Source of the DNA: a virus
Strand: one strand, 5' to 3'
Length of the DNA: 64,000 nt
Virus record (IMG/VR): IMGVR_UViG_3300005573_000005
In this document: piece after piece, positions 31,267-61,499 of the stretch
Position numbering within the stretch: the stretch's first letter is position 1
Layout of the letters: each line of letters starts with the position of its first letter
Position numbers and translations under genes: made by a program
The notes under the pieces: generated by a model
What the model was told of the DNA's origin: nothing
What the model saw: only the letters and a program-made list of their open reading frames with translations
Database searches by the model: none

Positions 31267-31785
31267 ATGATAACAGAAAATCAAAAGAAAGAATTGTTAA
31301 AGCATATACAAGATAAAGTTTATTCTCGATATTCCGATTGGGAACTTTATATGAAAGCCTGGAAAGAACATAATGATAATTTTCGTACAGAGGTATGGTT
31401 TGATTTTGATGCTGATGATATAGTGATCATACCAGGGCTTTCTACAGGTACGTATTCAAAAAGAAATGGTGTGATTTTGTTCACAATTGAGCAGAATACT
31501 ATGGCAAATTCTACATGGAAGGAGGAAGATGTACTATGGGATTATGAAATAGAAGAGCTAGAAAAAATGCGTGAAGAGGATTATGTAGATCTGGATGATT
31601 TTTGTAAAATGAAAGGTATAAATTTGAAGCGTCGTATAGGGGAATTTGAGGCTGATTTCTTTAAAATAGATTGGGACAAAGTGGAATATCAATTATCTGA
31701 GGAGGGTTTAACAGAGTCAGAACAAGTTTCGGTTAAACGTTTTATTATAGATAAACTTTTTGAAAAATGTGCGAAAAGAAAGTAA
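31267..31785 (+). CDS. hypothetical protein ending in the KRFIIDKLFE tag
   Basis: Strong RBS (aaggagg). The C terminus is ..EQVSVKRFIIDKLFEKCAKRK. Confidence 0.5.
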   Translation: MITENQKKELLKHIQDKVYSRYSDWELYMKAWKEHNDNFRTEVWFDFDADDIVIIPGLSTGTYSKRNGVILFTIEQNTMANSTWKEEDVLWDYEIEELEKMREEDYVDLDDFCKMKGINLKRRIGEFEADFFKIDWDKVEYQLSEEGLTESEQVSVKRFIIDKLFEKCAKRK

Positions 31786-31809: not shown

Positions 31810-32826
31810 ATGTCTGAAAAGTGTACTATATTAGATAAGTCGTTTGAAGTTGTAAGAGGAGTTCCTGGTTCTCGTGAATTTCCCACAATAGTGTCTTACG
31901 TAGATTTTTTAAACAGTGTAGGAGCAAAAGCTACTTTACGTAACGGTAAAATTGATGTAGAAAGGAGTATTTTGCCTGCGTTTGTTTATATTCAGAATGG
32001 TAAGATAGCTTATCCGTTTGGTTGTGTAAAGGGTGCTTTTGTATTGGATTACATTTCTTCTCTTCGCTCTTTGGAGAACTGTCCTGAATATGTAGGTGGT
32101 TTTTTCTCTTGTACAGATACGCAAATTACTTCTCTTCAAGGCGCTCCTGAGCATGTAGGTGAGGATTTCGATTGTTCTTATTGTAAAAATCTGAAATCTC
32201 TAAAAGGTGCTCCGAAGTACGTAGGCAGAGATTTTAATTGTTTACGTTGTGAGAATCTTACATCTCTTGAAGGAGCTCCTGAGTATGTAGGCAGAAATTT
32301 TAACTGTTTTCGTTGTGAGAATCTTTTATCCCTGAAAGGAGCTCCAAAATGTGTAGGTGGATCTTTTTATATTTTGGCTTGTTTTCAGTTGATATTTTTG
32401 GAAGGAGCTCCCGACTATGTAAGTGGAGATTTTAATTGTTCTTATTGCTATAATCTTACATCTTTGGCGGGTGCTCCGAAGTATGTAGGCAGAAATTTCA
32501 ACTGTTTTCGTTGCGAGAATCTTAAATCTCTCGAAGGAGCTCCCGAATATGTAGGCAGAGATTTTAATTGTTTACGTTGTGAGAATCTTAAATCTCTTGA
32601 AGGTGCTCCTGAGCATGTGGGCAGAAATTTCGATTGTTCGGAGTGTGTAAAGTTGATTTCTCTGGAGGGCGTTCCTGAGTATATAGGCGGAGATTTTGAT
32701 TGTTCTAAATGTGAAAAGTTAACATCTTTGGAAGGCTTAAATATTGTGAAAGGTAAAATTTATGCTAAGGAAATACCTATAAAAGATTTAGCTGGTTTTC
32801 CAGAAAATAAAGTTGTTTTAAAGTAG
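31810..32826 (+). CDS. Cys-containing 22-residue LRR-like repeat protein, paralog 1 (degenerate N-terminal tag MSEKCTILDKSFE)
   Basis: Pre-repeat module (SREFPTIVSYVDFLNSVGAKATLRNGKIDVE..). About 11 units of L.GAPEYVG.DF.C..C.NL.S. Conserved cap LNIVKGKIYAKEIPIKDLAGFPENKVVLK. Confidence 0.7.
   Translation: MSEKCTILDKSFEVVRGVPGSREFPTIVSYVDFLNSVGAKATLRNGKIDVERSILPAFVYIQNGKIAYPFGCVKGAFVLDYISSLRSLENCPEYVGGFFSCTDTQITSLQGAPEHVGEDFDCSYCKNLKSLKGAPKYVGRDFNCLRCENLTSLEGAPEYVGRNFNCFRCENLLSLKGAPKCVGGSFYILACFQLIFLEGAPDYVSGDFNCSYCYNLTSLAGAPKYVGRNFNCFRCENLKSLEGAPEYVGRDFNCLRCENLKSLEGAPEHVGRNFDCSECVKLISLEGVPEYIGGDFDCSKCEKLTSLEGLNIVKGKIYAKEIPIKDLAGFPENKVVLK
32401..32524 (+). repeat. 124-bp tract identical, bar 1 mismatch, to 41425..41548 in paralog 3
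   Basis: Base-by-base comparison shows the only difference is aaatttCa versus aaatttTa. The flanking repeat units are clearly more diverged by eye. Confidence 0.9.
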
Positions 32827-33803: not shown

Positions 33804-34013
33804 ATGCCTCCACCTAACTTAAAGCATTGTGTTCAAAAAGTTATGAGAAAAGGTTGGTCAAAACCAAGAGCGTATGCAATTTGTGTTTCTTCTACTGGCT
33901 GGAGACGAGCTCCTGGTAAGAAATGGGTAAAAGATGGTAAAGTCTGGAAGAAGCCTACAAGTGAATCTGTGAAGACTTTTATTATTGATAAATTATTTGA
34001 ATCTGTGTTATGA
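33804..34013 (+). CDS. small basic protein ending in the KTFIIDKLFE tag
   Basis: Strong RBS (aaaggag). MPPPNLKHCVQKVMRKGWSKPRAYAIC... The C terminus is ..SESVKTFIIDKLFESVL. Confidence 0.5.
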   Translation: MPPPNLKHCVQKVMRKGWSKPRAYAICVSSTGWRRAPGKKWVKDGKVWKKPTSESVKTFIIDKLFESVL

Positions 34014-36445: not shown

Positions 36446-39004
36446 ATGAGTATTATAAACTACCCAAGACCAACATTATCGCTTACTGTTTGGAAGCTTG
36501 AAGGTGATACTTATGTTTTGTCTGATGAAGCACGAGAAGTTATTCTGTCTGCACTTCGTAGTTTTCCTTACGTGGATTTGTTAGATATTGCTAAAGAAAT
36601 ACACATAGTAGGTTCTATAACTACAAATACTTATGAAGACACTTGCGATGTGGATGTTCATATAATTCCTGATGAAGATAAACTTAAAAAATATCTTAAC
36701 TCTGCTAATTTATCGTTTGAAGATTTTAATGAGAGAGTAAAGAAATTTTATAAGAAAGAGATTTTTAAAATAGGTACTCATCCTGTTGAAATTTATATAC
36801 AAGCTAATCCTGCACAGGACTTATTATCTGATGGCGTATATTCTTTTACAAAAGATGTTTGGAAGAAAGGACCTTTGTTACGTGGTGAAACTTATAATCC
36901 GAGAAAAGTTTTTGCACACATTTACGAACTTTTGAAGAAGAAAATTAAGAATGTAGATGTTTTGTTAGGACAAGTTAAGCGTGATGCTATTGATTATTCG
37001 GCTATAAAAAAGGTTATAGATAAACTTTCTCCTGAAGCACGTAAAGTTCTTGAGAATGAATTGGAAGAAATTGTTGATAATTTGTTCAAGAATATTGACG
37101 AACTTTTAAAAGTTAAAAAAGAATGGGTAGAATTACGCAGAAAATCTTCTGCTCCTTCTTCCCCAGAGGAGGCGTTGAATTCTGTTAAACTGGTCAGAAA
37201 ATGGACAGATGCGAATGCTTTATTTAAGCTTCTTGATTTATACGAATACTTGTATATAATTTCTGAGTTAGAAAAAGCTGTTTCTGATGATGTTTTAACT
37301 CCTTATGAAATTGAAGATATAAGGAAGAAATTGTCATATAGGAAGGATGAATCTGTTAGGATGCTCTATGATATTAGTTTATTAGAATCAATTCTCGACG
37401 GTCATTATCTTTTAGAGGACCGTGAGACTCGTAGACAGGACTTAAAGAAGAAACGTGATTTAGGTTACTTAAAAGTAACTGATGCGGATATAGAAACTGC
37501 TCTGGATATAAGTGAGCCTTATGCTTACTGGATACTTATCCAGGTAACAAAAGGTACAATTAAGCTTCCTCAAGATAAAGACCTTATAGCAAAATTAATA
37601 AAAGATTTTGATTTTGTGAAAAAGTCTTCTCGTTTTACAGGTTCTAAAGATATCTATGCGTATAAAACTCTTCAAGACTTGAAAGCTCAAGTAGAAAAAT
37701 CTAAGACCTTTGAAATTTCTAAGGGAGAGCAGAAACGCAGAGCAACTAAAGAAGGTCAAAGGATAGTAGCTGAGGACCCTCCTTACACAGTAATAGAGAT
37801 AACAACTCCTGAGGCTTCTGCTAAACTTCTTAGAGATACAAAATGGTGTGTAAAAGACCCTGATTATTTCGCTAAATATATTAAATACGGACCTATTTAT
37901 TTAGTCTTAAAGAACGGTAAGAAATTTTTATGCTACAGTGACTATGATGGGTTTAGTGATGTGGAGAATCATCCTGTTAGGGAAGTTGATAAAAAATTGT
38001 TTGATATTTTTGTAAGATTAAAAACTAAAGTAGCTAGGTTTGCGTCTCCGGTTTCAGAGCTTTCTTTGGGCCAATATGTAAGTTTTTTAAGAGATAGCGG
38101 ATTAAAAGTTACTCTACGTAATGGTAAGATTGATGTAGAAGGAGATGTTTCTAAAAAGTTTGTTTATTGCAGAAACGGTAAAATAGTATATTCTTTTGGT
38201 AAAGTTAGTGGTAATTTTTTAGTTGAAGGACTACCACTTCGTACTCTTGAAGGAGCTCCTGAGTACGTAGGTGGTGACTTTGATTGTTCTGGATGTTATG
38301 AACTTACATATCTAAAAGGAGCTCCCAGACGTGTAGAAGGTGTTTTTCGTTGTATTGATTGTAAAGATCTTCTTTCCCTTGAAGGTGCTCCGGAGTATGT
38401 GGGAAAAGATTTTGATTGTCGTCATTGTTACAGTCTTACATCTCTAAAAGGAGCTCCAGAGCGTGTAGGTAGAGATTTTGATTGTTCTTATTGTCACGGT
38501 CTTACATCTCTAAAAGGAGCTCCTAGGCGTGTAGAAGGCAATTTTAATTGTTCAGAATGTGAAAATCTTAAATCTCTTGAAGGAGCACCAGAGTATGTAG
38601 GCGGAAATTTTTATTGTTGGGCTTGTAAAAATCTTACTTCTTTTGAAGGTGCTCCAGAGTATGTGGGCGGAAATTTATATTGTTTGGGTTGTGAAAATCT
38701 TAAATCTCTTCAAGGCGCTCCTGAGTATGTTGGTGGAGATTTTGATTGTTCTTATTGCCCTAGTCTTACATCTCTAAAAGGAGCTCCAGAGCGTGTAGAA
38801 GGTCATTTTGTTTGTTCTGGTTGTATAAACCTTACATCTCTTGAAGGAGCTTCTGAGTACGTAGGTGGCGACTTTTATTGTGCTTATTGTCCTAATTTAA
38901 CTTCTTTGAAAGGTTTAAAAGTAGTAAAGGGTAAAATTTATGCTAAAGGTACTCCTATAAAAGATTTAGCTGGTTTTCCAGAAGATAAAGTTGTTTTGAA
39001 GTAA
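36446..39004 (+). CDS. three-part protein: N-terminal minimal nucleotidyltransferase (Pol-beta fold), a central domain of unknown function, and a C-terminal Cys-LRR-like repeat array (paralog 2)
   Basis: NTase signature IHIVGSITTNTYEDTCDVDVHI plus a downstream HPVEIYIQ. The central domain is shared with 40141..41856. Then the pre-repeat module, about 12 x 22-aa units, and the cap LKVVKGKIYAKGTPIKDLAGFPEDKVVLK. Confidence 0.65.
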   Translation: MSIINYPRPTLSLTVWKLEGDTYVLSDEAREVILSALRSFPYVDLLDIAKEIHIVGSITTNTYEDTCDVDVHIIPDEDKLKKYLNSANLSFEDFNERVKKFYKKEIFKIGTHPVEIYIQANPAQDLLSDGVYSFTKDVWKKGPLLRGETYNPRKVFAHIYELLKKKIKNVDVLLGQVKRDAIDYSAIKKVIDKLSPEARKVLENELEEIVDNLFKNIDELLKVKKEWVELRRKSSAPSSPEEALNSVKLVRKWTDANALFKLLDLYEYLYIISELEKAVSDDVLTPYEIEDIRKKLSYRKDESVRMLYDISLLESILDGHYLLEDRETRRQDLKKKRDLGYLKVTDADIETALDISEPYAYWILIQVTKGTIKLPQDKDLIAKLIKDFDFVKKSSRFTGSKDIYAYKTLQDLKAQVEKSKTFEISKGEQKRRATKEGQRIVAEDPPYTVIEITTPEASAKLLRDTKWCVKDPDYFAKYIKYGPIYLVLKNGKKFLCYSDYDGFSDVENHPVREVDKKLFDIFVRLKTKVARFASPVSELSLGQYVSFLRDSGLKVTLRNGKIDVEGDVSKKFVYCRNGKIVYSFGKVSGNFLVEGLPLRTLEGAPEYVGGDFDCSGCYELTYLKGAPRRVEGVFRCIDCKDLLSLEGAPEYVGKDFDCRHCYSLTSLKGAPERVGRDFDCSYCHGLTSLKGAPRRVEGNFNCSECENLKSLEGAPEYVGGNFYCWACKNLTSFEGAPEYVGGNLYCLGCENLKSLQGAPEYVGGDFDCSYCPSLTSLKGAPERVEGHFVCSGCINLTSLEGASEYVGGDFYCAYCPNLTSLKGLKVVKGKIYAKGTPIKDLAGFPEDKVVLK
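37371..39004 (+). repeat. segmental duplication, copy A (partner 40141..41856)
   Basis: Long collinear DNA similarity. For example 37428-37600 versus 40198-40370 differs at only a few positions per 100 nt by eye. The copy starts at the internal Met codon of MLYDISLLE. Confidence 0.85.
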
Positions 39005-39051
39005 ATATTTAGTGTTTGAACGTAAAAGTTAAAAAACAAAAGGAGGTAATT

Positions 39052-39678
39052 ATGACAAAATTACAAGATTTAAGTAAAGTTCAATTAGTAGGTTTAACAA
39101 AAGAAGAGCAAGACGCAATTAGAAAATGGATAGAACTTAGAAGACAATATGATAAGATAGAAGAAATAGTTAAGACTCTTGCTGAAAAACTTCAGCCTAT
39201 TGAAAAAGAGGTTATGGATATTCTTTATAAAAAGAAAGATCAAATGGTTATTGTAGATAATTATATTGTGAAGTGGGCTGGTTATGAAAAGAAATCTACT
39301 GCTTACGGAAAAGTTTTTTCAGAAGCTCTTAAGAAAATTTGTGAACAAGATCAAAAAATTCTTATGGAACTCAAGGATTTGTTTACTACGATTTCAAGGG
39401 TGGATAAAGCTACTGTTGCTGAATTAGTTAAAGAAGCACCACAACAGTCTGGTAAAGTTACGGAAAGCGTGAAAGATAAAGTGATTAAGTTTTTGCAAAA
39501 GGTTCGTGAGAAACTTTCTAAGATTTTGACTTTATTACTTTCACAGGATACTAATATTAATCAATTTGTTAATTTAGTTACGCAAGCCGAATTTGCAGTT
39601 ATTGAATCTGTTGTTGAAGATTTATATGAAGGTAAACAAAAGCTTCAGCATGGAGGTTTTTATGCCTTATATTTGTAA
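39052..39678 (+). CDS. hypothetical coiled-coil protein
   Basis: ATG 39052 is preceded by aaaggagg. The listed ORF starts at TTG 39016. Confidence 0.45.
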   Translation: MTKLQDLSKVQLVGLTKEEQDAIRKWIELRRQYDKIEEIVKTLAEKLQPIEKEVMDILYKKKDQMVIVDNYIVKWAGYEKKSTAYGKVFSEALKKICEQDQKILMELKDLFTTISRVDKATVAELVKEAPQQSGKVTESVKDKVIKFLQKVREKLSKILTLLLSQDTNINQFVNLVTQAEFAVIESVVEDLYEGKQKLQHGGFYALYL

Positions 39679-40144
39679 AAGATATAAAGGTAAATGGGGC
39701 AGGTTCAGAAAAGACACAGGTGAATTAAAGTCTACTCATGATACTAAAGAAAAATGTCTTGCAGCTATTCGAGCTGTTTATTGGAGTATGGGTAAGAGAG
39801 GTGAAAAGCACGAAGGTGTTACTACTACAGCTTCTATAGCTACTTTACCTAAATCTTTTGGTTATTTAAGACCTTTCTATGTATGTAATACTTGTAGAGT
39901 AATTTTAGACCAACCTACTTGTCCTGTTTGTAAAGGGAAGGCGGTTAAGATTTCTTCGTTAGAGGATTTAGGTATTACTGTAAAAGAACTAACAGATTCT
40001 TTTTATGATGGTTTACTTACGGAAGATAAAAAGTCCTTGGCAGATCTTCTGAAGAAGATGAATTGGTTGATTGCAACTATTATAGGTGCAGGTGCTTTTG
40101 CTTTGAAAATAAAGCGTGATTTGTCTAAAGTGGACTTAAAATGA
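39662..40144 (+). CDS. hypothetical protein with a zinc ribbon and a C-terminal TM helix
   Basis: ATG 39662 follows ggagg. CNTCRVILDQPTCPVCKGK, and a hydrophobic WLIATIIGAGAFALKI. Confidence 0.4.
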   Translation: MPYICKRYKGKWGRFRKDTGELKSTHDTKEKCLAAIRAVYWSMGKRGEKHEGVTTTASIATLPKSFGYLRPFYVCNTCRVILDQPTCPVCKGKAVKISSLEDLGITVKELTDSFYDGLLTEDKKSLADLLKKMNWLIATIIGAGAFALKIKRDLSKVDLK

Positions 40145-41856
40145 CGATTTACGATACAAATTTGATTGAATTTGTTCTTGACGGCTATTATCTCTTAGAG
40201 GACCGTGAGACTCGCAGGCAGGACTTAAAGAAAAAACGTGATTTAGGTTACTTAAAAGTAACTGATGCGGATATAGAAACTGCTCTGGATATAAGCGAGC
40301 CTTACGCTCACTGGATACTTATTCAGGTAACAAAAGGTACAATTAAGTTTCCTCAGGATAAAGACTTTATAACTCAGTTATTAAAAGACTTTGATTTTGT
40401 GAAAAAGTCTTCTCGTTTTACGGGTTTTAAAGATATCTATGCGTATAAAACTCTTCAAGACCTTAAAGCTCAAGTAGAGAAATCTAAGACCCTTGAAATT
40501 TCTAAAGGTGAGCAGAAACGCAGAGCAACTAAAGAAGGTCAAAGGGTAGTAGCTAAAGACCCTTCTTACACGGTGATAGAGATAACAACTCCGGAGGCTT
40601 CTGCTGAACTCCTTAGAGGTACAGAATGGTGTGTAAAAGATCCTGATTATTTTGCTGATTATATTGAATATGGACCTGTTTATTTAGTTTTAAAGAACGA
40701 TAAGAAATTTTTATGCTACAGTGATTATGATGGGTTTAGCGATATGGAAGATCATCCTGTTAAGAGAGTAGATAAGAAATTGTTGGGTATCTTTATAAAA
40801 TTAGGAACTAAAGTACTCAGGTTTGTAAGTGCCTCAAGTTTAGATTTATCTTTAGAACAATATGTAAGTTTTTTAAAAGACAGAGGCGTGAAAGCTACTA
40901 TAAGGGACGGCAAGATTGATGTAGAAGGCGATATTTTTGCGGAGTATGTTTATTATAAAGGAAGCGAAATAGTTTATCCTTTTGGTAAAGTTAGTGGTAA
41001 TTTTTCAGTTGAAGGACTTCCACTTCGTACTTTAAAGAATTCTCCTGAGTACGTAGGAGACGACTTTAATTGTTCTGTATTTGATAAACTTATTACTCTT
41101 GAAGGAGCTCCAGAGCGTGTAGAAGGCACTTTTGATTGTTCGTATTGCGATGGTCTTACTTCCCTTGAAGGAGCACCAGAGTATGTGGGGCGGATGTTTA
41201 ATTGTTCTCAGTGTCACGGTCTGACATCTCTAAAAGGAGCTCCCAGGCGTGTAGAAGTGTTTTGGTGTTCTGGTTGTGAAAATCTTAAATCTCTTGAAGG
41301 AGCTCCGGAGCATGTTGGCAGAGATTTTGATTGTTCTTATTGCGATAGTCTTACATCACTAAAAGGAGCTCCCAGGCGTGTAGAAGTGTTTAAGTGTTAT
41401 TCCTGTAAAAATCTTATCTCCCTTGAAGGAGCTCCCGACTATGTAAGTGGAGATTTTAATTGTTCTTATTGCTATAATCTTACATCTTTGGCGGGTGCTC
41501 CGAAGTATGTAGGCAGAAATTTTAACTGTTTTCGTTGCGAGAATCTTACATCTCTAAAAGGAGTTCCTAAGCGTGTAGGTAGAGATTTTAAGTGTTTTTA
41601 TTGCCGTAGTCTTACATCTCTTGAAGGAGCTCCTGAGTATGTAGGTAAATTTTTTGATTGTTCTTATTGCGATAGTCTTACATCTCTAAAAGGAGCTCCA
41701 GAGTACGTAGGTGGCGATTTTTATTGTGCTTATTGTTCTAAGCTTACTTCCTTACAAGGTCTGAAAGAAGTGAAAGGTATAATTTATGCTGAAGGAACTC
41801 CTATAAAAGATTTAGCAGGTTTTCCAGAAGATAAAGTTTATTTTGGGACAAAATAA
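40141..41856 (+). CDS. Cys-LRR-like repeat protein, paralog 3: an N-terminally shortened duplicate of 36446..39004 that lacks the NTase domain
   Basis: MTIYDTNLIEFVLDGYYLLEDRETRRQDLKKKRDLGYLKVTDADIETALDISEPYAHW... aligns with residues about 309 onward of the 852-aa protein. About 12 repeat units and the cap LKEVKGIIYAEGTPIKDLAGFPEDKV. Confidence 0.7.
   Translation: MTIYDTNLIEFVLDGYYLLEDRETRRQDLKKKRDLGYLKVTDADIETALDISEPYAHWILIQVTKGTIKFPQDKDFITQLLKDFDFVKKSSRFTGFKDIYAYKTLQDLKAQVEKSKTLEISKGEQKRRATKEGQRVVAKDPSYTVIEITTPEASAELLRGTEWCVKDPDYFADYIEYGPVYLVLKNDKKFLCYSDYDGFSDMEDHPVKRVDKKLLGIFIKLGTKVLRFVSASSLDLSLEQYVSFLKDRGVKATIRDGKIDVEGDIFAEYVYYKGSEIVYPFGKVSGNFSVEGLPLRTLKNSPEYVGDDFNCSVFDKLITLEGAPERVEGTFDCSYCDGLTSLEGAPEYVGRMFNCSQCHGLTSLKGAPRRVEVFWCSGCENLKSLEGAPEHVGRDFDCSYCDSLTSLKGAPRRVEVFKCYSCKNLISLEGAPDYVSGDFNCSYCYNLTSLAGAPKYVGRNFNCFRCENLTSLKGVPKRVGRDFKCFYCRSLTSLEGAPEYVGKFFDCSYCDSLTSLKGAPEYVGGDFYCAYCSKLTSLQGLKEVKGIIYAEGTPIKDLAGFPEDKVYFGTK
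41425..41548 (+). repeat. 124-bp tract identical, bar 1 mismatch, to 32401..32524 in paralog 1
   Basis: See 32401..32524. Encodes LEGAPDYVSGDFNCSYCYNLTSLAGAPKYVGRNFNCFRCENL in both genes. Confidence 0.9.
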
Positions 41857-41913
41857 AAGATTTGCGTAGGGTTTAAGTTTTGCGAAAGATAAAATTTTGA
41901 ATCTGGTTTTATT

Positions 41914-41960
41914 CTTTTAAGTTTGTGGAGTAGAACTAACAATAACAAAAAAGTAGGAGG
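41914..41960 (+). promoter_or_regulatory. conserved leader/promoter-like element upstream of a tagged gene
   Basis: cTTTTAAGTTTGTGGAGTAGAACTAACAATAACAAAAAAGTAGGAGG. Related copies lie at 59731..59778 and 60331..60368. Confidence 0.4.
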
Positions 41961-41968
41961 TTAATAAA

Positions 41969-42991
41969 ATGTCTAAACGTTATATTATAGATAAGTTATT
42001 TGAAGCCGTAGATGCGGATAAAACGCCTGTAAGTTCTCGTGAGTTCCCCACAATAGAGTCTTATGTTGACTACTTGAACAGTAAGGGGATAAAAGCATCT
42101 TTACGTAATGGTAAGATTGATGTAGAAGGTGACATTTCTGCGAAGTATGTTTATTACAAAGGAGACGAAATAGTTTATCCTTTTGGCAAAGTTAATGGTA
42201 ATTTCTCAGTTGAAAAACTTCCGCTTCGTACTTTAAAGAACTCACCTGAGTGGGTAGGAGGTGGCTTTAATTGTTCTGCATGTGATAAACTTATTACTCT
42301 TGAAGGAGCTCCTGAGTATGTAAGTGGTAATTTTTATTGTCTTAATTGCGGTAGCCTTACATCTCTTGAAGGAGCTCCAGGGCGTGTAGGTGGAGACTTT
42401 AGTTGCTCTTATTGTGATAAGCTTACATCTCTTGAAGGAGCTCCTAGGCGTGTAGGTAGAGATTTTGATTGTTCTGCTTGTAAAAATCTTATTTCCTTAG
42501 AAAGTGCTCCATCGTATGTAGGTAGAGATTTTGATTGTTCTTATTGTCATGGTCTCACATCTCTAAAAGGATTTCTTGAGTATGTGGGTGGTAATTTTTA
42601 TTGTGACAAATGCGATAGCCTTACATCTCTTGAAGGGGTTCCAGAGTATGTAGGCGGAGATTTTGGTTGTTCTTATTGCGATAATCTTACATCTTTAAAA
42701 GGAGCTCCTAAGCGTGTAAATGGTGTTTTTGATTGTTCTCATTGTGGGGGGCTGACTTCCTTAGAAGGAGCTCCTAAGTATGTAGATAGATATTTTAATT
42801 GCTCTTCTTGTCATAACCTTACTTCTCTTGAAGGAGCTCCTGAGTATGTAGGAGGCGACTTTAATTGTTCTCGTTGTCCTAAGCTTACTTCCTTACAAGG
42901 TCTGAAAGAAGTGAATGGTAAAATTTATGCTTCAAAAACTCCTATAAAAGATTTAGCTGGTTTTCCAGAAGATAAAGTTATTTTGGAATAA
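41969..42991 (+). CDS. Cys-LRR-like repeat protein, paralog 4, with the N-terminal MSKRYIIDKLFE tag
   Basis: Strong RBS (aggagg). Tag, then the pre-repeat module (SREFPTIESYVDYLNSKGIKASLRNGKIDVEGD..), about 10 units, and the cap LKEVNGKIYASKTPIKDLAGFPEDKVILE. Confidence 0.7.
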   Translation: MSKRYIIDKLFEAVDADKTPVSSREFPTIESYVDYLNSKGIKASLRNGKIDVEGDISAKYVYYKGDEIVYPFGKVNGNFSVEKLPLRTLKNSPEWVGGGFNCSACDKLITLEGAPEYVSGNFYCLNCGSLTSLEGAPGRVGGDFSCSYCDKLTSLEGAPRRVGRDFDCSACKNLISLESAPSYVGRDFDCSYCHGLTSLKGFLEYVGGNFYCDKCDSLTSLEGVPEYVGGDFGCSYCDNLTSLKGAPKRVNGVFDCSHCGGLTSLEGAPKYVDRYFNCSSCHNLTSLEGAPEYVGGDFNCSRCPKLTSLQGLKEVNGKIYASKTPIKDLAGFPEDKVILE

Positions 42992-43093: not shown

Positions 43094-43258
43094 GTGTTGC
43101 TTAATGAAACTAATACAATTAGTCAATTAAAAAACGTTCGTTTTGAGATTGAAAGCCAGGTTTTAGAAGTTCAGAAAGAACTTTCTAAGTTTAGAGAACC
43201 CGACTCAGGATTACGTTTTTGTATCAGAAAATTCATTGCCTTAGTTGATAAAGTATAA
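43094..43258 (+). CDS. small hypothetical protein
   Basis: GTG 43094 lies 7 nt after AAGGAG. The listed TTG 43058 start lies inside the conserved intergenic motif. Confidence 0.3.
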   Translation: MLLNETNTISQLKNVRFEIESQVLEVQKELSKFREPDSGLRFCIRKFIALVDKV

Positions 43259-47723: not shown

Positions 47724-48053
47724 ATGATACAGGCAAATATAAATTATTATGATGTTCCTGCTACTCTTGGAACTATTTGCAATATAGTGGATGCTACGCA
47801 GGATACGAGATTTTTCTATTTTACTAATTTAGATAAAGTTAACACAATAACTTTGAAATTTCAGCAATCTACTGATGGAGGTAATACCTGGAATGATATT
47901 CAGGGAGCTGAAATTGTATTAGACCCTGAAGAAACAAAGTCTTTTTCTATTACAAATGCTAATTTACTACGTATAGTTGGTTCGGGAAATGCTCAATTAC
48001 TGGTAGTTCTGGTAAGAAACTTTGCTCCTAATGCTGTAACAATTGTTTTGTGA
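47724..48053 (+). CDS. small beta-rich protein (same style as the N-terminal parts of 46173 and 49961, no Cys tail)
   Basis: 109 aa with a beta-sandwich-like alternation (TITLKFQQSTDGGNTWNDIQGAEIVLDPEETKSFSITNANLLRIVGSGNAQLLVVLV). Confidence 0.45.
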   Translation: MIQANINYYDVPATLGTICNIVDATQDTRFFYFTNLDKVNTITLKFQQSTDGGNTWNDIQGAEIVLDPEETKSFSITNANLLRIVGSGNAQLLVVLVRNFAPNAVTIVL

Positions 48054-49247: not shown

Positions 49248-49526
49248 ATGGATAAAAACGGAATTTTAAAAATTTTATTCAGGAGATCTGAAGGTCTTCT
49301 TTCAGAAGATGTTACAGTTTTGTCTGATAGACCTGAGAAGGATGAAATTTTGCAAGATTTTGCTAAGAAGCATGGTGTAAAGTTTCGTAAAGATGGTAAA
49401 AAATTCCGTCTTAATGTACCTAAAGATAAATTGGGTAAAGTTTCTGCTACTCTTTCTTCTCTTGGTTTTGATGTTGCAATTGGGGATGAAAAACGATTAC
49501 AGAGAGGTTTAGCAGGACGGTTATGA
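49248..49526 (+). CDS. small hypothetical protein (weak tag-like N terminus MDKNGILKILFRRSE)
   Basis: 92-aa ORF overlapping the downstream start. Confidence 0.4.
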   Translation: MDKNGILKILFRRSEGLLSEDVTVLSDRPEKDEILQDFAKKHGVKFRKDGKKFRLNVPKDKLGKVSATLSSLGFDVAIGDEKRLQRGLAGRL

Positions 49527-49786
49527 ACAAGCATAAGATAATTGATATTTTATTTGAGAGTAAGAAGGATTTTGAACAGTTGTCAAGAGAAGGTCTTTTT
49601 GGTAAAACAAATAATTTGACTTACGATTCTTATACTAAAGTAAGAGATGCTTTTCAAAATCTTGAAAGAGTAATAGAACTTAGTTTTGGTGAGAATCAAG
49701 AGAAGATGAGAAAACTTCTCGGTTTATTACGGGAGGCTTTAGCTATTCTTGAACAAAATTATCCTGTCGAAGATAAAAAGGAATGA
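49523..49786 (+). CDS. small hypothetical protein with a tag-like N terminus MNKHKIIDILFE
   Basis: 87-aa ORF whose N terminus is a variant of MSKRYIIDKLFE. Confidence 0.45.
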   Translation: MNKHKIIDILFESKKDFEQLSREGLFGKTNNLTYDSYTKVRDAFQNLERVIELSFGENQEKMRKLLGLLREALAILEQNYPVEDKKE

Positions 49787-56115: not shown

Positions 56116-56378
56116 TTGTTATGTTATTACCACCTACAACTGTAAAATATTGGCGTGTTCAACTTGAAGACCCTTATTCGGATTCTTCAGATATCCTAAT
56201 TCTATTAGATAATGGAGATAGTTATAAAGTCTCCCTGGAACTTTTTGAACATTTGCTTAAAAGAATGGATTTTAGTTGTTCAGATGTTATTCTTAATCAT
56301 TTGTGGAATGCTAAAGCTGTACGTTTAGATTTAGAAAATAAGGTTTCTCATTCTGTTTGTTATTTAACAGGATTATAA
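56112..56378 (+). CDS. small hypothetical protein
   Basis: 88-aa ORF overlapping the upstream stop. Confidence 0.4.
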   Translation: MIVMLLPPTTVKYWRVQLEDPYSDSSDILILLDNGDSYKVSLELFEHLLKRMDFSCSDVILNHLWNAKAVRLDLENKVSHSVCYLTGL

Positions 56379-56395
56379 AGAAAGGAGTTCTGACT

Positions 56396-58156
56396 ATGGC
56401 TACTATACCGCTCTATGTTTATGGACGTGCTGATACTGATTTTCTTATAACGGAAAAGTATGAGCAAAAACAATCTGATGGTTCAAGTAGAATTGTTCTT
56501 GTAGGAAAGATCCAAGAAGCAGATAAAGCTAATAGAAATGGTCGTATTTATCCAAGAAAGCTCTGGGAGAAAGTACTCTCTGAGAATTCTTCTTTTAAAA
56601 CCCTTCTTAAGGAACGTAAAGTACTTGGACAATTAGAGCATCCCGAGAAAGGAATATCCTCCTTAAAAGAGGTCTCTCATCTCGTTGAAGATGTATGGAT
56701 GGACCCTGCGACTGGAGCTGTCTATGGCAGGTTTCTTGTCTTAGACACTCCCAGCGGGAAGATTGTAAAAGAGCTCGTATCTGCTGGGATACCTGTAGGG
56801 GTTTCCAGTAGAGCTATGGGCTCTGTAAAAAGAAGTCCTGATGGCTACGATATTGTACAAGAAGATGGTTTTGAATTAAAGACTTTTGACTTTGTATGTG
56901 AGCCATCTGTAGTTGATGCTTATCCGTCTTATATAAAAGAAGCACTGGAAAATCTGTGTAAACAAAAGGAGACTAATATGAGTGATATAAAGAACGATAT
57001 TAAACTAATTTCAGAATGTGAGAGGTTTCTTGATTCCGTAGGGAGTGATTTTGCTTCTTCTAAGGAGATTTTAGAGAAGCTTGATATTGTTGACTCTTAT
57101 ATTTCTAAGCTTGCTTCTGTTGACCAGAGCCTTCGTTCAGATGCTGATATTTGTATAGGTAAATTGCTTGCTGTGAAGTCTATGCTCAAGAAATCTTTGA
57201 TAGAGTCAAGTACAGAGAGTAATGTACCTGTTGTGGAAGCAAAACCAGTAAGTAACAAAGAAGGAGATGCAAAAGTTGTGTCTAAGGTTGTTGAAGAATT
57301 ACTTACGGAGCTTCGTAGGGAGAAAAAAGAAGCTGAATCGAAAGAATCTAAGGTTGCAAAAGAAGAATCTGAGAAAGAAAGCGAAGTGAAAGAACCTGAG
57401 GTTGCAAAGGAAGAGCCTGGAAAAGAAGACGAAGTGAAAGAACCTGAGGTTGCGAAAGAAGAGTCTAGAAAAGAAGATGAAGTGAAAGAACCTGAGGTTG
57501 CGAAAGAAGAGCCTGGAAAAGAAGACGAAGTGAAAGAACCTGAGGTTGCGAAAGAAGAACCTAAAAAAGAAGACGAATTATCTTCAGATGAGAAGGAAGA
57601 AGTTCCTGTTGTTAAGGATAAATTTGAAGAACCTATAGAATTTAGAAGACGTCTTCTTAGACATAGAAGAATTAGACCAAGAAGGTTCTATAGACTTCCT
57701 TATTCTTCTGAAGACCGTTCTGATGGCGAAACTGCAGACGTATTTGACAAATCTGCGGAAATAATTGATGTTGCAGCTGAAGCTATAGATAAAGCTGCTG
57801 ATGTGATTGATAATTCAGCAGAACGTATTGCTAATCTCAGTGAGCTTGCTTCTTATCAAAGGGATTGTTTGAGAAGTGCAAATCAGTTTATATGTGCTCT
57901 TGTAGAACGTGGTCGTGAGATAAAGAAAGAATTATTTGTTTATAAGTTTTTAGAAGCTCGTCCAGATCTTAAAGGTCTTCGTGAGGAACTTAATAATTGT
58001 CGTACTGTTGTAGAATGTAAAGATTTGTTACACAATAAATACAAGATACCTTTGAATGAAATGGAGTTTGATTCAAAGAAGAAAGAAAAAGAGATATTAG
58101 AATCCAGTACAGAAAGTCGGAAAGGGTTTGTACACTTTCTGGCTAAACGATTGTAA
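56396..58156 (+). CDS. T4 gp21-like prohead core protease fused to an acidic repeat, scaffold-like C-terminal region
   Basis: ADKANRNGRIYPRKLWEKVL...VLGQLEHPEKG...VEDVWMD...GIPVGVSSRAMGS parallels T4 gp21 as I recall it (VNRNKRLYPKRILEKAV..ALGELNHP..IEDMWW..GWIPGVSSRGLGS). An E/K-rich repeat and helical region follow. Confidence 0.75.
   Translation: MATIPLYVYGRADTDFLITEKYEQKQSDGSSRIVLVGKIQEADKANRNGRIYPRKLWEKVLSENSSFKTLLKERKVLGQLEHPEKGISSLKEVSHLVEDVWMDPATGAVYGRFLVLDTPSGKIVKELVSAGIPVGVSSRAMGSVKRSPDGYDIVQEDGFELKTFDFVCEPSVVDAYPSYIKEALENLCKQKETNMSDIKNDIKLISECERFLDSVGSDFASSKEILEKLDIVDSYISKLASVDQSLRSDADICIGKLLAVKSMLKKSLIESSTESNVPVVEAKPVSNKEGDAKVVSKVVEELLTELRREKKEAESKESKVAKEESEKESEVKEPEVAKEEPGKEDEVKEPEVAKEESRKEDEVKEPEVAKEEPGKEDEVKEPEVAKEEPKKEDELSSDEKEEVPVVKDKFEEPIEFRRRLLRHRRIRPRRFYRLPYSSEDRSDGETADVFDKSAEIIDVAAEAIDKAADVIDNSAERIANLSELASYQRDCLRSANQFICALVERGREIKKELFVYKFLEARPDLKGLREELNNCRTVVECKDLLHNKYKIPLNEMEFDSKKKEKEILESSTESRKGFVHFLAKRL
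57383..57574 (+). repeat. 4 x 48-bp in-frame tandem repeat (EVKEPEVAKEEPGKED units), with a degenerate partial unit upstream from 57347
   Basis: The unit gaagtgaaagaacctgaggttgc(a/g)aa(g/a)gaagagcctggaaaagaagac repeats at 57383, 57431, 57479 and 57527. Confidence 0.9.
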
Positions 58157-58241: not shown

Positions 58242-59648
58242 ATGGCGAATGCACAGAATCTATATGAAGATATCCGCAAGGTTGGAGAAATGCTTGCGGA
58301 GAAGTGGTCAAATATGCCTAAGGATCAACTACCTTGCTTTGAGGACTATCCTGAGTCAAGGATAGACTTTCTGGAAGGTATTGAAGATCCTTGGAAGCGT
58401 AACCTGATTGCCATCCTTTGTGAGAACTATAGAAAACTTACAGAGGATGTGACAACTACAGGTCAATTGGCCACTTTCCCTCGCTATGTGTATCCACTGA
58501 TCCGTGCAGTGTATGCTAACATCATTACTGGCGAGCTATTTAGCGTTCAGCCTTTGACAGGTCCTACTGGATTGGTGTTCTACTGGGACATCATATACGG
58601 ATCTACAAAAGGCAACGTTACAGCTGGCAGTAAGATGTATGATGCTCTTGCAGGACCGATGACGAATGAGACAGATTATATCAGTGAAAAGATTAATAGT
58701 GAAGTACTGGCCAATGGGGATGGTAGTGCAAATCGTTTCACTGGTAATTTGTCCTGGATTCCTGTTAGAGCTGGATCTGTTATAATCACTGACGGAACTG
58801 AGACCTTTACGGATAACGGTAACGGGAATCTGACTGGCAGTGCAGGTGGTTCTGGAACGATTGACTATGTAACTGGTGCTTATGATATTACATTTAATGA
58901 AGCTCCTCCTTCTGGAGCTACTGTTGTGGCAGATTATTCCTACAATATGGAACAATCTGACCAGGTTCCAGAAGTAGAATTCCTGCTAACTTCATCACCA
59001 GTAGTAGCTCAACCGTTCAGACTACGTTCACGCTGGTCACAGGATGCCGAGTTTGACCTGAAGGCGGTGCATGGTATAGTTGCTGAAACAGAAATTGTAG
59101 GTTTCTTAGGGAATGAAATCCAGAAAGAGATCTACAATAAAATGATTCGGCAAGCTCGGGCAATTGCTCCTGGTGGTTATGTAGAGTGGGATCACACTCC
59201 GCCACTGGCAGTGCCTGAAGTCCTGCATCGTCAGACACTTGCATTGAAAGTTGTTCATGCAAGTAATGAAATCTTCAGACGTACGCAGAGATTCGGTGCA
59301 GACTGGATAGTCTGTGGTGTGGATTTTGCTGCGTACATTGAAGCTCTTCCAGACGGGTTCTTTACTCGGACTCCTGTAGCTCCTGGTACCGCAGGTGTCC
59401 ATAAGATTGGGACACTCCGTTCTGGTCAAGTGGTTTATAAGGATCCTGCATATCCAAGCAATGAGGCACTGCTGGGTCATAAGGGTACATCATTGCTCGA
59501 TGCGGGTATCATCCAGGCAGTTTACATTGGTCTTTATACAACTGATACTATCAGGCTGGATGACTTCCGTGTAAGGAAGGGGCTTGCTAACAAGTCCGCC
59601 ATAAAGGTAGTCAATCCACGGTATTATCAGAAGATGAGGATCGTGTAA
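58242..59648 (+). CDS. major capsid protein (T4 gp23-like HK97-fold family)
   Basis: Lies directly after the protease/scaffold. LIAILCENYRKL..TTTGQLATFPRYVYPLIRAVYANIITGELFSVQPLTGPTGLVFYW matches the conserved gp23-family N-terminal block (..dlvsvQPm.gP.g.vfy). Followed by a strong terminator. Confidence 0.7.
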   Translation: MANAQNLYEDIRKVGEMLAEKWSNMPKDQLPCFEDYPESRIDFLEGIEDPWKRNLIAILCENYRKLTEDVTTTGQLATFPRYVYPLIRAVYANIITGELFSVQPLTGPTGLVFYWDIIYGSTKGNVTAGSKMYDALAGPMTNETDYISEKINSEVLANGDGSANRFTGNLSWIPVRAGSVIITDGTETFTDNGNGNLTGSAGGSGTIDYVTGAYDITFNEAPPSGATVVADYSYNMEQSDQVPEVEFLLTSSPVVAQPFRLRSRWSQDAEFDLKAVHGIVAETEIVGFLGNEIQKEIYNKMIRQARAIAPGGYVEWDHTPPLAVPEVLHRQTLALKVVHASNEIFRRTQRFGADWIVCGVDFAAYIEALPDGFFTRTPVAPGTAGVHKIGTLRSGQVVYKDPAYPSNEALLGHKGTSLLDAGIIQAVYIGLYTTDTIRLDDFRVRKGLANKSAIKVVNPRYYQKMRIV

Positions 59649-59730: not shown

Positions 59731-59778
59731 TTTTTAAGTTTGTGGAGTAAAACTAGCAAAAACAAACAAAATAGGAGG
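59731..59778 (+). promoter_or_regulatory. conserved leader/promoter-like element upstream of a tagged gene
   Basis: TTTTTAAGTTTGTGGAGTAAAACTAGCAAAAACAAACAAAATAGGAGG. Compare 41914..41960. Confidence 0.4.
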
Positions 59779-59784
59779 TGAAAA

Positions 59785-60336
59785 ATGTCTAAACGTTATA
59801 TTATAGACAAATTGTTTGAGGCTGCCGGTGTGGTTTTTGAAATAAAGTTTCCTACAATAGAGTCTTATGTTGGTTTCTTAAACAGTAAAGGACTAAAAGC
59901 TACTCTACGAGATGGTAAGATTGATGTGGTAGGAGATGTTTGGTCAAGATTTATTTATATTGAGGATGAAAAGATAGTTTATCCTTTTGGTAAAATTAAC
60001 GGTGGTTTTTCAGTTTCAGGGCTTCCTCTTCATACTCTTGAAGGAGCTCCTAAGTATGTAGGTGGATTTTTTGATTGTTCTTCTTGCCGTAATCTTACAA
60101 CTCTAAAAGGAGCTCCCAGGCATGTAGAAGGCCATTTTGATTGTTCTAATTGTATAAACCTTACATCCCTTGAAGGCGCTCCTGAGTACGTAGGGGATAA
60201 CTTTTATTGTGCTTATTGTCCTAATTTAACTTCTTTGAAGGGTTTAAAGGTAGTAAAGGGTAAAATTTATGTTAGAGGAACTCCTATAAAAGACTTTTCA
60301 GGTTTTTCAAAAGATAAAGTTAAATTGTCTTTTTAA
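59785..60336 (+). CDS. short Cys-LRR-like repeat protein, paralog 5, with the N-terminal MSKRYIIDKLFE tag
   Basis: Tag, pre-repeat module (FPTIESYVGFLNSKGLKATLRDGKIDVVGD..), about 4 units, and the cap LKVVKGKIYVRGTPIKDFSGFSKDKVKLSF. Confidence 0.7.
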   Translation: MSKRYIIDKLFEAAGVVFEIKFPTIESYVGFLNSKGLKATLRDGKIDVVGDVWSRFIYIEDEKIVYPFGKINGGFSVSGLPLHTLEGAPKYVGGFFDCSSCRNLTTLKGAPRHVEGHFDCSNCINLTSLEGAPEYVGDNFYCAYCPNLTSLKGLKVVKGKIYVRGTPIKDFSGFSKDKVKLSF

Positions 60337-60368
60337 GTTTGCGGGTAAGAACGAACAGAAATAGAGGA
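60331..60368 (+). promoter_or_regulatory. third, more diverged copy of the leader element
   Basis: TTTTAAGTTTGCGGGTAAGAACGAACAGAAATAGAGGA. Overlaps the last codons of 59785..60336. Confidence 0.3.
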
Positions 60369-60374
60369 TATAAC

Positions 60375-61499
60375 ATGTCTAAGCGTTATATTATAGACAA
60401 ATTGTTTGAAGTTGTAAAAGCCAGGGAGAGTACAGATAGCAGAACATTAGGTGGCAAAACTCTGGAACAATTTAAAGAAGCTGTTGAGGGGCTTGAAGAT
60501 TTTTATCCTTATGCTGTAGAAGTTGGTTTAGAGTTTCTTTCCGGGCGACAGAAACAAAGTTGGGATTTTATCGATACTGCGAGATTGGCACAGCAATACC
60601 AGAAGCTTCTTAAAGATGAGCCGTTAGATACGGACTTTTTAGATGAAACTATTTTTATTTTAAGAAATAATATAGGGAAAATTTTGGCTAATTCTATGTA
60701 TATTTATTATCCAACAGGTGTTTTTCAACTTATGGATGAAGAGTTAGATGCTTTTAGTGATTTTATTGCAGATGAGTATGGTAATTGCAGAGCAACAGAA
60801 GCTCCAGAAAAGTTTGAAAAAGCTTTAAGAGAACTAACTATTGCAAAGACAGATCGTCAGAAGCTTGTAGCAATAAATAATACTCTTGATATTGTGCATG
60901 GGATAGGCGAAGTTGCATATTGGTTTGTTAAAGGTGGAAAAATTACTCTGGATAAGTTATCGGGTAAGCTTCAGGAGAGTAATTTAGAAGATAAAGCAAG
61001 AATTCCGCCGGGATTTGAATTTTTGGTGAAAGAAGCGAAGAAATATAAGAGTGCTGAGGAATTTGTAGAAGCGCAGGCAAAGAAGATAACAGAAAAGATG
61101 GTAGCTAAAATTTGTGATATTTATGATGTTCCTAAAATAGATGTTGAGTTTTTAGATACAGATTTAACATCTGGGGGTGGATTGGGGAGTTTTAAGGTTT
61201 TTCGTGGTAAATATCCGTTTATAGAAATTGCGAAAGAGGGGTTGTTAGATAATCATTCGCTTTATCATGAGTTGGCTCATTATATTTTATGGACAAGGAA
61301 AAGAGAAAACGTTTTTCATCCGGTATTAGCACATGGAGAAGAACATGACAGAATAATGTGCAGAATAGCTCATTTTTTAAAACCAGATTATATTTCAAGG
61401 TCTCAACTTATTGACATTTATAATTATGCTACAAAAAAATTAAATAAAACAGAACGACCTGAAGCTAAGGCGAGTGAAGCTGTAGCAAAAGAAGAATAG
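60375..61499 (+). CDS. MSKRYIIDKLFE-tagged protein with a C-terminal HExxH (zinc metallopeptidase-like) motif
   Basis: ATG 60375 (the listed ORF starts at TTG 60339). N terminus MSKRYIIDKLFEVVKA. NHSLYHELAHYILW contains H-E-L-A-H. Confidence 0.5.
   Translation: MSKRYIIDKLFEVVKARESTDSRTLGGKTLEQFKEAVEGLEDFYPYAVEVGLEFLSGRQKQSWDFIDTARLAQQYQKLLKDEPLDTDFLDETIFILRNNIGKILANSMYIYYPTGVFQLMDEELDAFSDFIADEYGNCRATEAPEKFEKALRELTIAKTDRQKLVAINNTLDIVHGIGEVAYWFVKGGKITLDKLSGKLQESNLEDKARIPPGFEFLVKEAKKYKSAEEFVEAQAKKITEKMVAKICDIYDVPKIDVEFLDTDLTSGGGLGSFKVFRGKYPFIEIAKEGLLDNHSLYHELAHYILWTRKRENVFHPVLAHGEEHDRIMCRIAHFLKPDYISRSQLIDIYNYATKKLNKTERPEAKASEAVAKEE

Follow-up and report, generated by a model that had tools for sequence, protein, structure and literature searches.

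The window analysed here is a 64,000-nucleotide (nt) stretch of the IMG/VR virus record IMGVR_UViG_3300005573_000005. It encodes five paralogous proteins, designated A to E (open reading frames (ORFs) 31810-32826, 36446-39004, 40141-41856, 41969-42991, and 59785-60336, respectively), which by structure prediction are leucine-rich repeat (LRR) solenoids of a 22-residue unit, closed by an N-cap (the pre-repeat module) and a C-cap. Paralogs D and E begin with an identical 12-amino-acid (aa) tag, which also begins an unrelated protein, and the tag ends in the cleavage motif of a prohead protease family that has a member in the same window. We propose, giving it about an even chance, that the LRR proteins are packaged in the capsid and ejected as binders or effectors, by analogy with the internal proteins of phage T4.

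Architecture and predicted fold of the five paralogs

All five ORFs are located on the + strand. The ORF listing of the window and the module copies reproduce, at the same coordinates, the three-part design that an earlier note on this DNA had described. Specifically, each protein contains a pre-repeat module, 3-11 tandem 22-aa units, and a conserved cap (Table 1). Units were parsed by anchoring on the L-x-G-A-P-x-x-V motif, which gives 10, 10, 11, 10, and 3 canonical units in A, B, C, D, and E, respectively. The tandem arrangement is as the note had it, while the shortest paralog has 3 units rather than 4 and the total is 44 rather than about 50. Paralog E reaches 5 units if its degenerate N- and C-terminal capping units are included. 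The unit length is 22 aa in 41 of the 44 units and 21 aa in the other three. Eight positions (L1, G3, P5, V8, F12, C14, C17, and L20) are near-invariant, with entropy ≤0.44 bits, in agreement with the consensus proposed before. At the DNA level the periodicity is 66 nt, with two families of direct repeats that have 26 and 35 copies in register, and the pre-repeat module and the cap recur in four copies (70-82% identity) and five copies (72-85% identity), respectively. Paralog A could start at a TTG further upstream (31801), but more likely starts at the ATG at 31810, which yields MSEKCTILDKSFE.

The structure of paralog D was predicted with AlphaFold2 from a 20-sequence alignment, with predicted local distance difference test (pLDDT) of 93.1 and predicted template modelling score (pTM) of 0.87. 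Each unit forms two short strands, and the repeats contain no helices. A helix and a hairpin form the N-cap, which corresponds to the pre-repeat module, while residues 1-19, the region of the tag, are disordered. All 50 of the 50 PDB matches listed by Foldseek are LRR proteins. The best of them is 4fs7, the BspA-like Bacteroides LRR protein BACOVA_04585 (E-value (E) 4e-4, template modelling score (TM) 0.36), and further matches include NLR LRR domains, FBXL2 (rank 4), InlA, SDS22, and YopM. The listed matches in BFVD are mostly LRR proteins as well, from phages and giant viruses. The prediction and the search, made on one paralog, thus bear out the LRR-type solenoid suspected from the spacing of conserved residues. 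In sequence, the segment F12-x-C14-x-x-C17-x-x-L20 of the unit agrees with the canonical LRR core LxxLxLxx(N/C)x(x)L.

The family had not been recognised in the earlier note, and searches of Pfam, NCBIfam, PHROGs, and PADLOC return no usable curated family for any of the five window proteins, for the mid domain of B and C, or for the tagged ORFs. LRR Pfam models match none of the five at E up to 1; two homologs, P0021 and P0043, match Pfam LRR_4 (E 3e-10 and 6e-9). The sole PDB sequence match is a weak one to the repeats of internalin A (InlA; E 0.012). The two profiles singled out for checking, LRR_5 (PF13306) for BspA/TpLRR and PF05725 for FNIP/IP22, match no window protein, and FNIP proteins appear among the BFVD structural matches only at rank 42. 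The BspA/TpLRR resemblance holds only loosely: the best PDB match is BspA-like, but the TM is only 0.36, LRR_5 is not matched, and a unit has 22 rather than 23 aa.

Comparison with known LRR classes places the proteins near several of them. Like BspA/TpLRR repeats, the units have a conserved Cys in the core segment and a beta-rich build that lacks a helix on the convex side. BspA proteins themselves carry signal peptides and are secreted, surface-located proteins. A cysteine-containing (CC) LRR class, reportedly defined by Kobe and Kajava for F-box proteins (Skp2/FBXL, LxxLxLxxCxxITDxxL), has the same core spacing, with a ladder Cys followed by xxL-T-[SD]; unlike it, the units here are 22 aa rather than ~26 aa, have no convex-side helix, and come from phages and bacteria. 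SDS22-like and internalin LRRs share the 22-aa period. However, the window proteins have a Cys ladder (an Asn ladder is confined to relatives) and a different variable segment, and they lack an Ig-like inter-repeat domain.

The tag, its cassette, and the head proteins

The tag MSKRYIIDKLFE is identical at the starts of paralog D (41969), paralog E (59785), and the non-LRR ORF 60375..61499. It ends in L-F-E at position 12, which is the L/I-x-E cleavage motif of the gp21-family protease, and the earlier description of it as capsid-targeting-like holds at all three starts. The shared DNA is a cassette of ~95 nt, which extends from TTTTAAGTTTGTGGAGTA, ~55 nt upstream, through the ribosome-binding site (RBS) to codon 12. 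In the non-LRR gene, the likeness to the other cassettes stops at about codon 12-14, just past L-F-E. Because the tag and ~55 nt of upstream DNA are common to D, E, and an unrelated ORF, the tag is shown, at the level of sequence, to be a portable module on LRR and non-LRR proteins alike. The HELAH motif of the non-LRR protein suggests a zinc metallopeptidase.

Related tags occur elsewhere in the window, at the N-termini of paralog A and the 87-aa ORF 49523, and two further ORFs have them at the C-terminus (Table 1). ORF 31267..31785 ends with SVKRFIIDKLFE followed by KCAKRK (terminal residues SVKRFIIDKLFEKCAKRK, then stop), and ORF 33804..34013 ends with SVKTFIIDKLFE followed by SVL (terminal residues SVKTFIIDKLFESVL, then stop). 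Paralog C begins MTIYDTNLIE/F..YLLE/D, where a slash follows the Glu of each candidate site, with L-I-E at position 10 and L-L-E at position 20, and plausibly has a ~10-aa propeptide ending in L/I-x-E. Inside the LRR arrays there are zero [LI]xE sites, the expected numbers being too small for a depletion test.

The phage is a distant T4-like myovirus, and its head is shown to be built with a gp21-type protease and a gp23 capsid protein (Table 1); phrog_207 is matched as well. The capsid protein has L-T-E at aa 66-68, three aligned positions C-terminal of the L-T-E cleavage site of T4. Other window genes encode a portal, a family-B DNA polymerase, UvsX, SSB, and an SbcCD-like nuclease. The protease-scaffold gene also contains five tandem 48-nt repeats (57325-57625, +), which encode acidic 16-aa units EVKEPEVAKEE[PS][GR]KED.

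In T4, gp21 cleaves after L/I-X-E, the 10 N-terminal aa of IPIII are enough for packaging, and tagged foreign proteins up to the size of beta-galactosidase are packaged and delivered (PMC9026906). The N-termini of T4 core and internal proteins in NC_000866 obey the same rule: MKTYQEFIAE/A (IPII, IPIII), MLKEQLIAE/A (gp22), MNEPQLLIE/T (gp21), and MEGLIE/A (gp67).

Relatives in other genomes were collected with a degenerate DNA pattern that encodes LTSLEGAPxxVGxxFxC, used on IMG/VR and GTDB. Tags were counted in the IMG/VR loci listed for this pattern, as [LI]xE within the first 16 aa. Such a motif is present in 131 of 195 LRR ORFs (67%) vs 181 of 832 non-LRR ORFs of the same loci (22%), the counts being of related, non-independent sequences; after de-duplication of N-termini the rates are 63% and 22%. 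Among LRR ORFs binned in metagenome-assembled genomes (MAGs), a largely bacterial-looking set with one relative confirmed in a cellular context, the motif is at the background rate (39/170, 23%), and the starts differ (e.g. MAELNDKFEFEQDGKTYNLYDLPDGF).

The tags of other phages vary: MKHLQSFSLFE/A, MKNLKTYRQLFE followed by S, MKLKQLFE/S, MKSLESIYNSILLE followed by N, and MKKLLESLLE/Q. Within a locus, the same tag recurs on non-LRR proteins, namely a 638-aa protein (L056), a 210-aa protein of the TxWCVKDP domain found in paralogs B and C (L044), a 144-aa protein starting with MEIYKFEQFIAE followed by S (L019), and an HExxH protein (L004). These three controls, namely the excess of viral LRR ORFs over their neighbours, the background rate in MAG-binned copies, and the locus-specific tags, argue that the tag is a property of the phage rather than of the LRR family. 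In L004, L055, L045, L030, and L095, the neighbours of LRR genes include genes for S77 protease, scaffold, and gp23, and in L004 and L055 the LRR genes form tandem arrays next to these head genes, which mirrors paralog E, located directly downstream of the major capsid gene. The array of L004 is closed by the tagged HExxH protein (FAHEMLH, +11119).

Proposed packaging and ejection, and the alternatives

We suggest the following pathway for the LRR proteins. The tag would dock the proteins into the prohead scaffolding core, and the gp21-type protease would then cut it off. The mature proteins would stay in the DNA-filled head and be ejected into the cell with the genome, where their targets would be host proteins, with factors of defence or of the early response as the most plausible ones. 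The idea of a target-recognition arsenal against host proteins, raised in the earlier note, is strengthened by the shared tag, by the head protease, and by the tags in other loci.

The closest known system is the set of T4 internal proteins Ip1-3, which are injected and each inhibit a different GmrSD nuclease (PMC12373910). Both systems have a short N-terminal propeptide (a putative one here) that ends in L/I-x-E and is common to unrelated proteins (Ip1, Ip2, Ip3, and Alt with their capsid-targeting sequence (CTS) in T4), a gp21-family protease and gp23, and multiple fast-changing paralogous loci; in both, as proposed here, the cargo would bind or inhibit specific host proteins after ejection. 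The T4 cargo is made up of small proteins (95-193 aa) that are unrelated to each other, whereas the proposed cargo of this phage is an LRR solenoid of 20-97 kDa. The tag is MSKRYIIDKLFE rather than MKTYQEFIAE, and, in contrast to the T4 CTS, copies are also present at C-termini, and paralog B is untagged. Among the ejection (E) and inner-body proteins of phiKZ-like phages and SPN3US, many are likewise cut after Glu by a protease related to gp21 before they are ejected (PMC9026906). However, their motif is S/A-x-E, and they belong to other protein families, none found described as LRR. A further parallel is provided by YopM of Yersinia and IpaH/SspH/SlrP of Shigella and Salmonella, in which LRR solenoids of 20-22-aa units enter a target cell as the substrate-recognition arm and are sometimes fused to an enzyme; YopM and SspH2-like proteins are among the structural matches of paralog D. 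Those proteins use type III secretion rather than the phage head proposed here; the window proteins have no NEL ligase domain, have a Cys-containing core, and are fused to nucleotidyltransferase (NTase)-like and TxWCVKDP domains.

Several observations weigh against packaging. The pathway of packaging, cleavage, and ejection is inferred from a short, low-information motif. In paralog A the tag ends in S-F-E, with Ser rather than Leu or Ile at P3, paralog B has no tag, and the L-I-E and L-L-E of paralog C are generic sites. Paralog B begins exactly where the putative propeptide of stand-alone homologs of its N-terminal domain ends. A distance of 14-25 kb separates paralogs A-D from the head module, and the genes around them look non-structural. 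The window shows no enrichment of the T4 late-promoter box TATAAATA (6 observed vs 8.5 expected), and a k-mer analysis of upstream regions finds no consensus. In other genomes, the paralogs of the 596-kb phage contig L068 have no [LI]xE, and the homolog in Vibrio phage VB_VaC_SRILMA, the only one found in a cultured phage, is untagged and adjoins a DnaB-like helicase gene. Fisher p-values for the tag enrichment overstate independence.

Part of this evidence suits a different role, which we consider possible but doubtful: the LRR proteins would be cytoplasmic binders for host takeover or anti-defence, made after infection and never packaged, and the shared N-terminus would be a duplicated cassette of promoter, RBS, and leader that spreads by recombination. 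This role fits the ~55 nt of non-coding DNA in the cassette, the position of A-D away from the head module, the missing tag of B, and the replication-gene neighbourhood of the Vibrio phage homolog. It does not fit the tags at the C-termini of two ORFs, where no translation leader is possible. It also leaves aside that the L-x-E at the end of the tag is the motif of a protease family in the same genome, that tags differ among phages and are common to unrelated proteins within a phage, that [LI]xE is at 23% in MAG-binned homologs vs 67% in viral loci, and that LRR arrays repeatedly adjoin S77 and gp23 genes.

A role at the virion surface is unlikely. In such a role the proteins would be capsid decorations, fibre tips, or adhesins, with the LRR binding the host surface. 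The BspA-like best PDB match and the position of E directly after the capsid gene point that way, as do the LRR domains on DUF7941 fibres of phage Goslar, virion proteins proposed to be host-recognition elements (bioRxiv 10.64898/2026.04.21.720040). However, the sequences contain no fibre, baseplate, or anchor domain, signal peptide, or trimerisation module, and Pfam and PHROGs are silent. Paralogs A-D contain 20-24 Cys per protein (6 in E), and the fusions are to NTase-like and other intracellular-looking domains. Lectin-type tail-fibre candidates are already present at 50.5-54.6 kb of the window, and N-terminal L-x-E tags suit core, not external, proteins.

If the tag is a capsid-targeting propeptide, as in the packaging and ejection that we favour, T4-style head loading is widespread in uncultivated phages and the LRR family is a main cargo class. 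A peptide ending in L-x-E at the N-terminus (sometimes the C-terminus), common to unrelated ORFs of a genome, could then serve as a search rule for ejected proteins, and would nominate hundreds of candidate anti-defence binders on a well-understood scaffold. A bolder version, which we think improbable though worth stating, is that T4-like and huge uncultivated phages carry a recombining library of LRR warheads: units would be shuffled by gene conversion and loaded in the capsid via the genome-specific propeptide, each protein would neutralise a different host immune protein, and fusions would steer an enzyme to its target. Such a library would be a viral, capsid-delivered counterpart of LRR immune receptors, and an LRR analogue of the arms race between Ip1-3 and GmrSD.

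Repeat variation, core cysteines, fused domains, and relatives

The most variable positions of the unit are 11, 13, 15, 16, 18, and 19 (1.9-3.3 bits). Positions 10, 11, 13, 15, and 16 correspond to x2, x3, x5, x7, and x8 of LxxLxLxxN, the canonical LRR binding positions, while positions 18 and 19 are located in the loop past the ladder residue. Because the variable residues occupy x positions of the strand and the following loop, we infer that each paralog would show a different binding surface on the usual ligand-binding face of LRR proteins. The units share 70% nt identity on average. The ratio of nonsynonymous to synonymous differences (pN/pS), a crude per-position estimate over unit pairs in three pair sets, is ≤0.1 at scaffold positions and 0.6-0.9 at most variable positions. 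It reaches 1.1-1.4 at position 18, and 1.1-1.3 at position 16 in two of the three sets (0.65 in the strictest). This pattern is compatible with relaxed or diversifying selection, is not decisive, and does not prove positive selection. Thus, of the diversifying surface proposed earlier, the concentration of variation at a few positions is upheld by entropy and pN/pS, and positive selection is not demonstrated.

Units are also exchanged between genes. A two-unit patch is identical at 128 of 132 nt between units 6-7 of A (32398-32529, +) and units 7-8 of C (41422-41553, +). Downstream of the patch the two genes are in register at ~70% identity; upstream they are out of register. The sequence pattern indicates a recent unit-level gene conversion between genes 9 kb apart. 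The A unit that precedes the patch is degenerate (LKGAPKCVGGSFYILACFQLIF) and has lost its first Cys.

The C-x2-C pair of each unit had been suggested to allow metal or disulfide stabilisation. The pair is complete in 40 of the 41 units of 22 aa. A comparison with 126 homologs gives two unit types, F.C..N.L with 21 aa (724 units) and F.C..C..L with 22 aa (273 units), and each homolog is wholly N-type or wholly C-type, with no mixed proteins. The spacing F-x-C-x-x-(C/N) matches LRR positions 4, 6, and 9. Because Asn replaces the second Cys in most homologous units (724/997, ~70%), the second Cys (C17), judged by this comparison, is the Asn/Cys ladder residue, and the first (C14) is the buried core position 6 of the LRR. 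A solenoid that is not an ordinary LRR, in which the pairs bind metal (e.g. Zn between stacked units) or form disulfides, is very improbable: stacked CxxC pairs could in principle provide four thiolates, the pair is almost always kept, and zinc-ribbon Pfam models give sub-threshold matches (E 0.02-0.4), but no zinc-family model passes its threshold, AlphaFold2 gives a confident ordinary LRR without ligand, and the prevalence of Asn, with the same fold implied and no protein mixing the two types, makes a metal site unlikely. In annotation, the CxxC pair should be taken as an LRR core feature, not a zinc site.

Paralogs B and C contain further domains. Specifically, the order in B is NTase-like domain, mid domain, LRR array, and cap, and C has all of these but the first; within the region common to both paralogs, a reported 300-nt repeat copy shows 88% nt identity. 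The N-domain of B has the Pol-beta-type signature hG[GS]x9-13Dh[DE]h (VGS...DVDVH), with VGSITTNTYEDTCDVDVHI invariant in three homologs. Its Pfam matches, to NTP_transf_2 (E 0.018) and MTPAP, are weak and under the cut-off (E ~0.01-0.02), and profile and single-sequence searches of the PDB give nothing meaningful. Stand-alone homologs of this domain are present in other phages (L044 and L060, E 5e-71). They have a 25-31-aa N-extension that ends in ..V-x-E followed by S and resembles a propeptide.

The mid domain is alpha+beta, with an invariant W-C in T-x-W-C-V-K-D-P, and its AlphaFold2 model is confident (pLDDT 90.6). It has 1,576 representative relatives at E ≤1e-3, in proteins of 208-2,733 aa. 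No Pfam model matches it, and the best Foldseek match in the PDB is not significant (E 0.18). A PcfJ-like assignment (PF14284) was rejected: neither the window domain nor eight relatives match the model, and only an x-W/H-C-V motif is shared. PF14284 is matched only by the different N-domain of P0021. Some relatives of the mid domain end in repeated YA..V(I/L)KGR(F/W)PE(G/A)E..I motifs.

Many mid-domain relatives, as well as C, have an (L/F)-L-x-E-(D/G) motif ahead of the first confident helix, and B has L-L-E sites where two of its domains join (aa 314 and 324). These sites hint, speculatively, at polyprotein-like processing. All three module types of B occur elsewhere as separate tagged proteins. 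In B and C, the LRR would act as the targeting arm of an effector.

The LRR family is large. A word-indexed search gives at least 7,584 clusters (90% identity) of protein relatives at E ≤1e-3 among the 8,000 candidates scored; nearly all are metagenomic, and the few listed source names read hypothetical protein. Relatives are present in ~30 of 50,697 annotated phage records, including the huge phages LR756501-3, Lak phages, two Vibrio phages, and Ralstonia RsoM2USA, where they are hypothetical or unannotated. At the DNA level, a 7-kb region of the window has no similarity to any of the 50,697 records. In IMG/VR the degenerate pattern matches at least 120 loci, with 203 LRR ORFs among the matches listed, often in tandem arrays. 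The arrays among these matches contain 11 copies in L068, 8 each in L084, L094, and L056, and 6 in L009, the largest having 11 LRR copies in 11 kb.

The pattern is found in GTDB genomes only in MAGs. Many untagged paralogs occur in MAGs of gut and rumen Alphaproteobacteria (e.g. Candidatus (Ca.) Enterousia) and of Chlorobiaceae (loci L125-L240). One relative, P0054 (L241, 10001-10975), has cellular surroundings (L28, GroEL/ES, asd, MscS, and NrdD), with a VirB8-domain gene three genes upstream. The bacterial copies may be secreted effectors. Five copies in one phage, which the earlier note had treated as special, are therefore not exceptional, since other uncultivated phages have up to 11 and the family is also present in bacterial chromosomes. 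Contigs binned to the MAG of Ca. Muiribacterium halophilum (L125, L150, L161, L165, L190, L209, and L217) contain as many as 9 LRR paralogs in tandem within 8 kb. Every one of these paralogs begins with MKY(I/L)K.FNE(S/N), and the contigs look like phage contigs in a bacterial bin.

LRR proteins and CTS-directed internal proteins are already well known. A literature search on LRR with capsid targeting, ejection, virion, or anti-defence found no paper on this family. A very large, unannotated LRR subfamily with genome-specific protease-site tags on its phage copies, tandem arrays, and occasional enzyme-like fusions appears to be undescribed.

Table 1. Coordinates of the window features discussed in the text
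Feature	Position	Strand	Description
Tag-like KRFIIDKLFE	31735..31764	+	C-terminus of acidic 172-aa ORF 31267..31785
Paralog A	31810..32826	+	338 aa; diverged tag MSEKCTILDKSFE, pre-repeat, 10 units (32071-32727), cap (32728-32823)
Tag-like KTFIIDKLFE	33972..34001	+	C-terminus of very basic 69-aa ORF 33804..34013, isoelectric point 10.4
Paralog B	36446..39004	+	852 aa; N-domain, mid domain, pre-repeat and 10 units (38246-38905), cap; no N-terminal tag
N-domain of B	36446-37354	+	NTase-like, GS...DxD motif
Mid domain of B	37355-37999	+	TxWCVKDP
Paralog C	40141..41856	+	571 aa; mid domain, pre-repeat, 11 units (41032-41751), cap
Mid domain of C	40141-40785	+	TxWCVKDP
5' cassette, copy 1	41915..42004	+	TTTTAAGTTTGTGGAGTA, RBS, 12 tag codons (paralog D)
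Paralog D	41969..42991	+	340 aa; tag MSKRYIIDKLFE (41969-42004), N-cap (~42038-42232), 10 units (42233-42892), cap
Small ORF	49523..49786	+	87 aa; related N-terminal tag MNKHKIIDILFE followed by S
Prohead core serine protease	56357..58156	+	Peptidase_S77 / T4 gp21 family (E 9e-22), fused to acidic scaffold-like tail
Major capsid protein	58242..59648	+	T4 gp23 type (Gp23 E 9e-42)
5' cassette, copy 2	59732..59820	+	same upstream element, RBS, tag (paralog E)
Paralog E	59785..60336	+	183 aa; tag (59785-59820), 3 units (60037-60234), cap
5' cassette, copy 3	60331..60410	+	on non-LRR gene
Non-LRR protein	60375..61499	+	374 aa; identical tag, HELAH (HExxH) motif; candidate co-packaged cargo

Essentially all credible genes of the window are on the + strand, and the contig from which the window comes is ~86-97 kb long. 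The GC content is 28-42%, mostly ~33%, and the GC skew is strongly positive over the window (1-64000), with a cumulative skew that climbs monotonically. An HNH endonuclease gene (43245-43622, +; PHROG HNH families, E 1e-15) is located ~250 nt downstream of the LRR paralog cluster. ORFs 46173-46616 and 49961-50500 (both +) have similar Cys-x3-Cys ladders near their ends, CQTACQLSCEQNCQSVCE and CSVSCETWCESGCETVCQ, and ORF 47724..48053 resembles the N-terminal part of ORF 46173-46616. The three ORFs may together form a small family of virion proteins that are rich in beta structure and have a Cys-rich tail.

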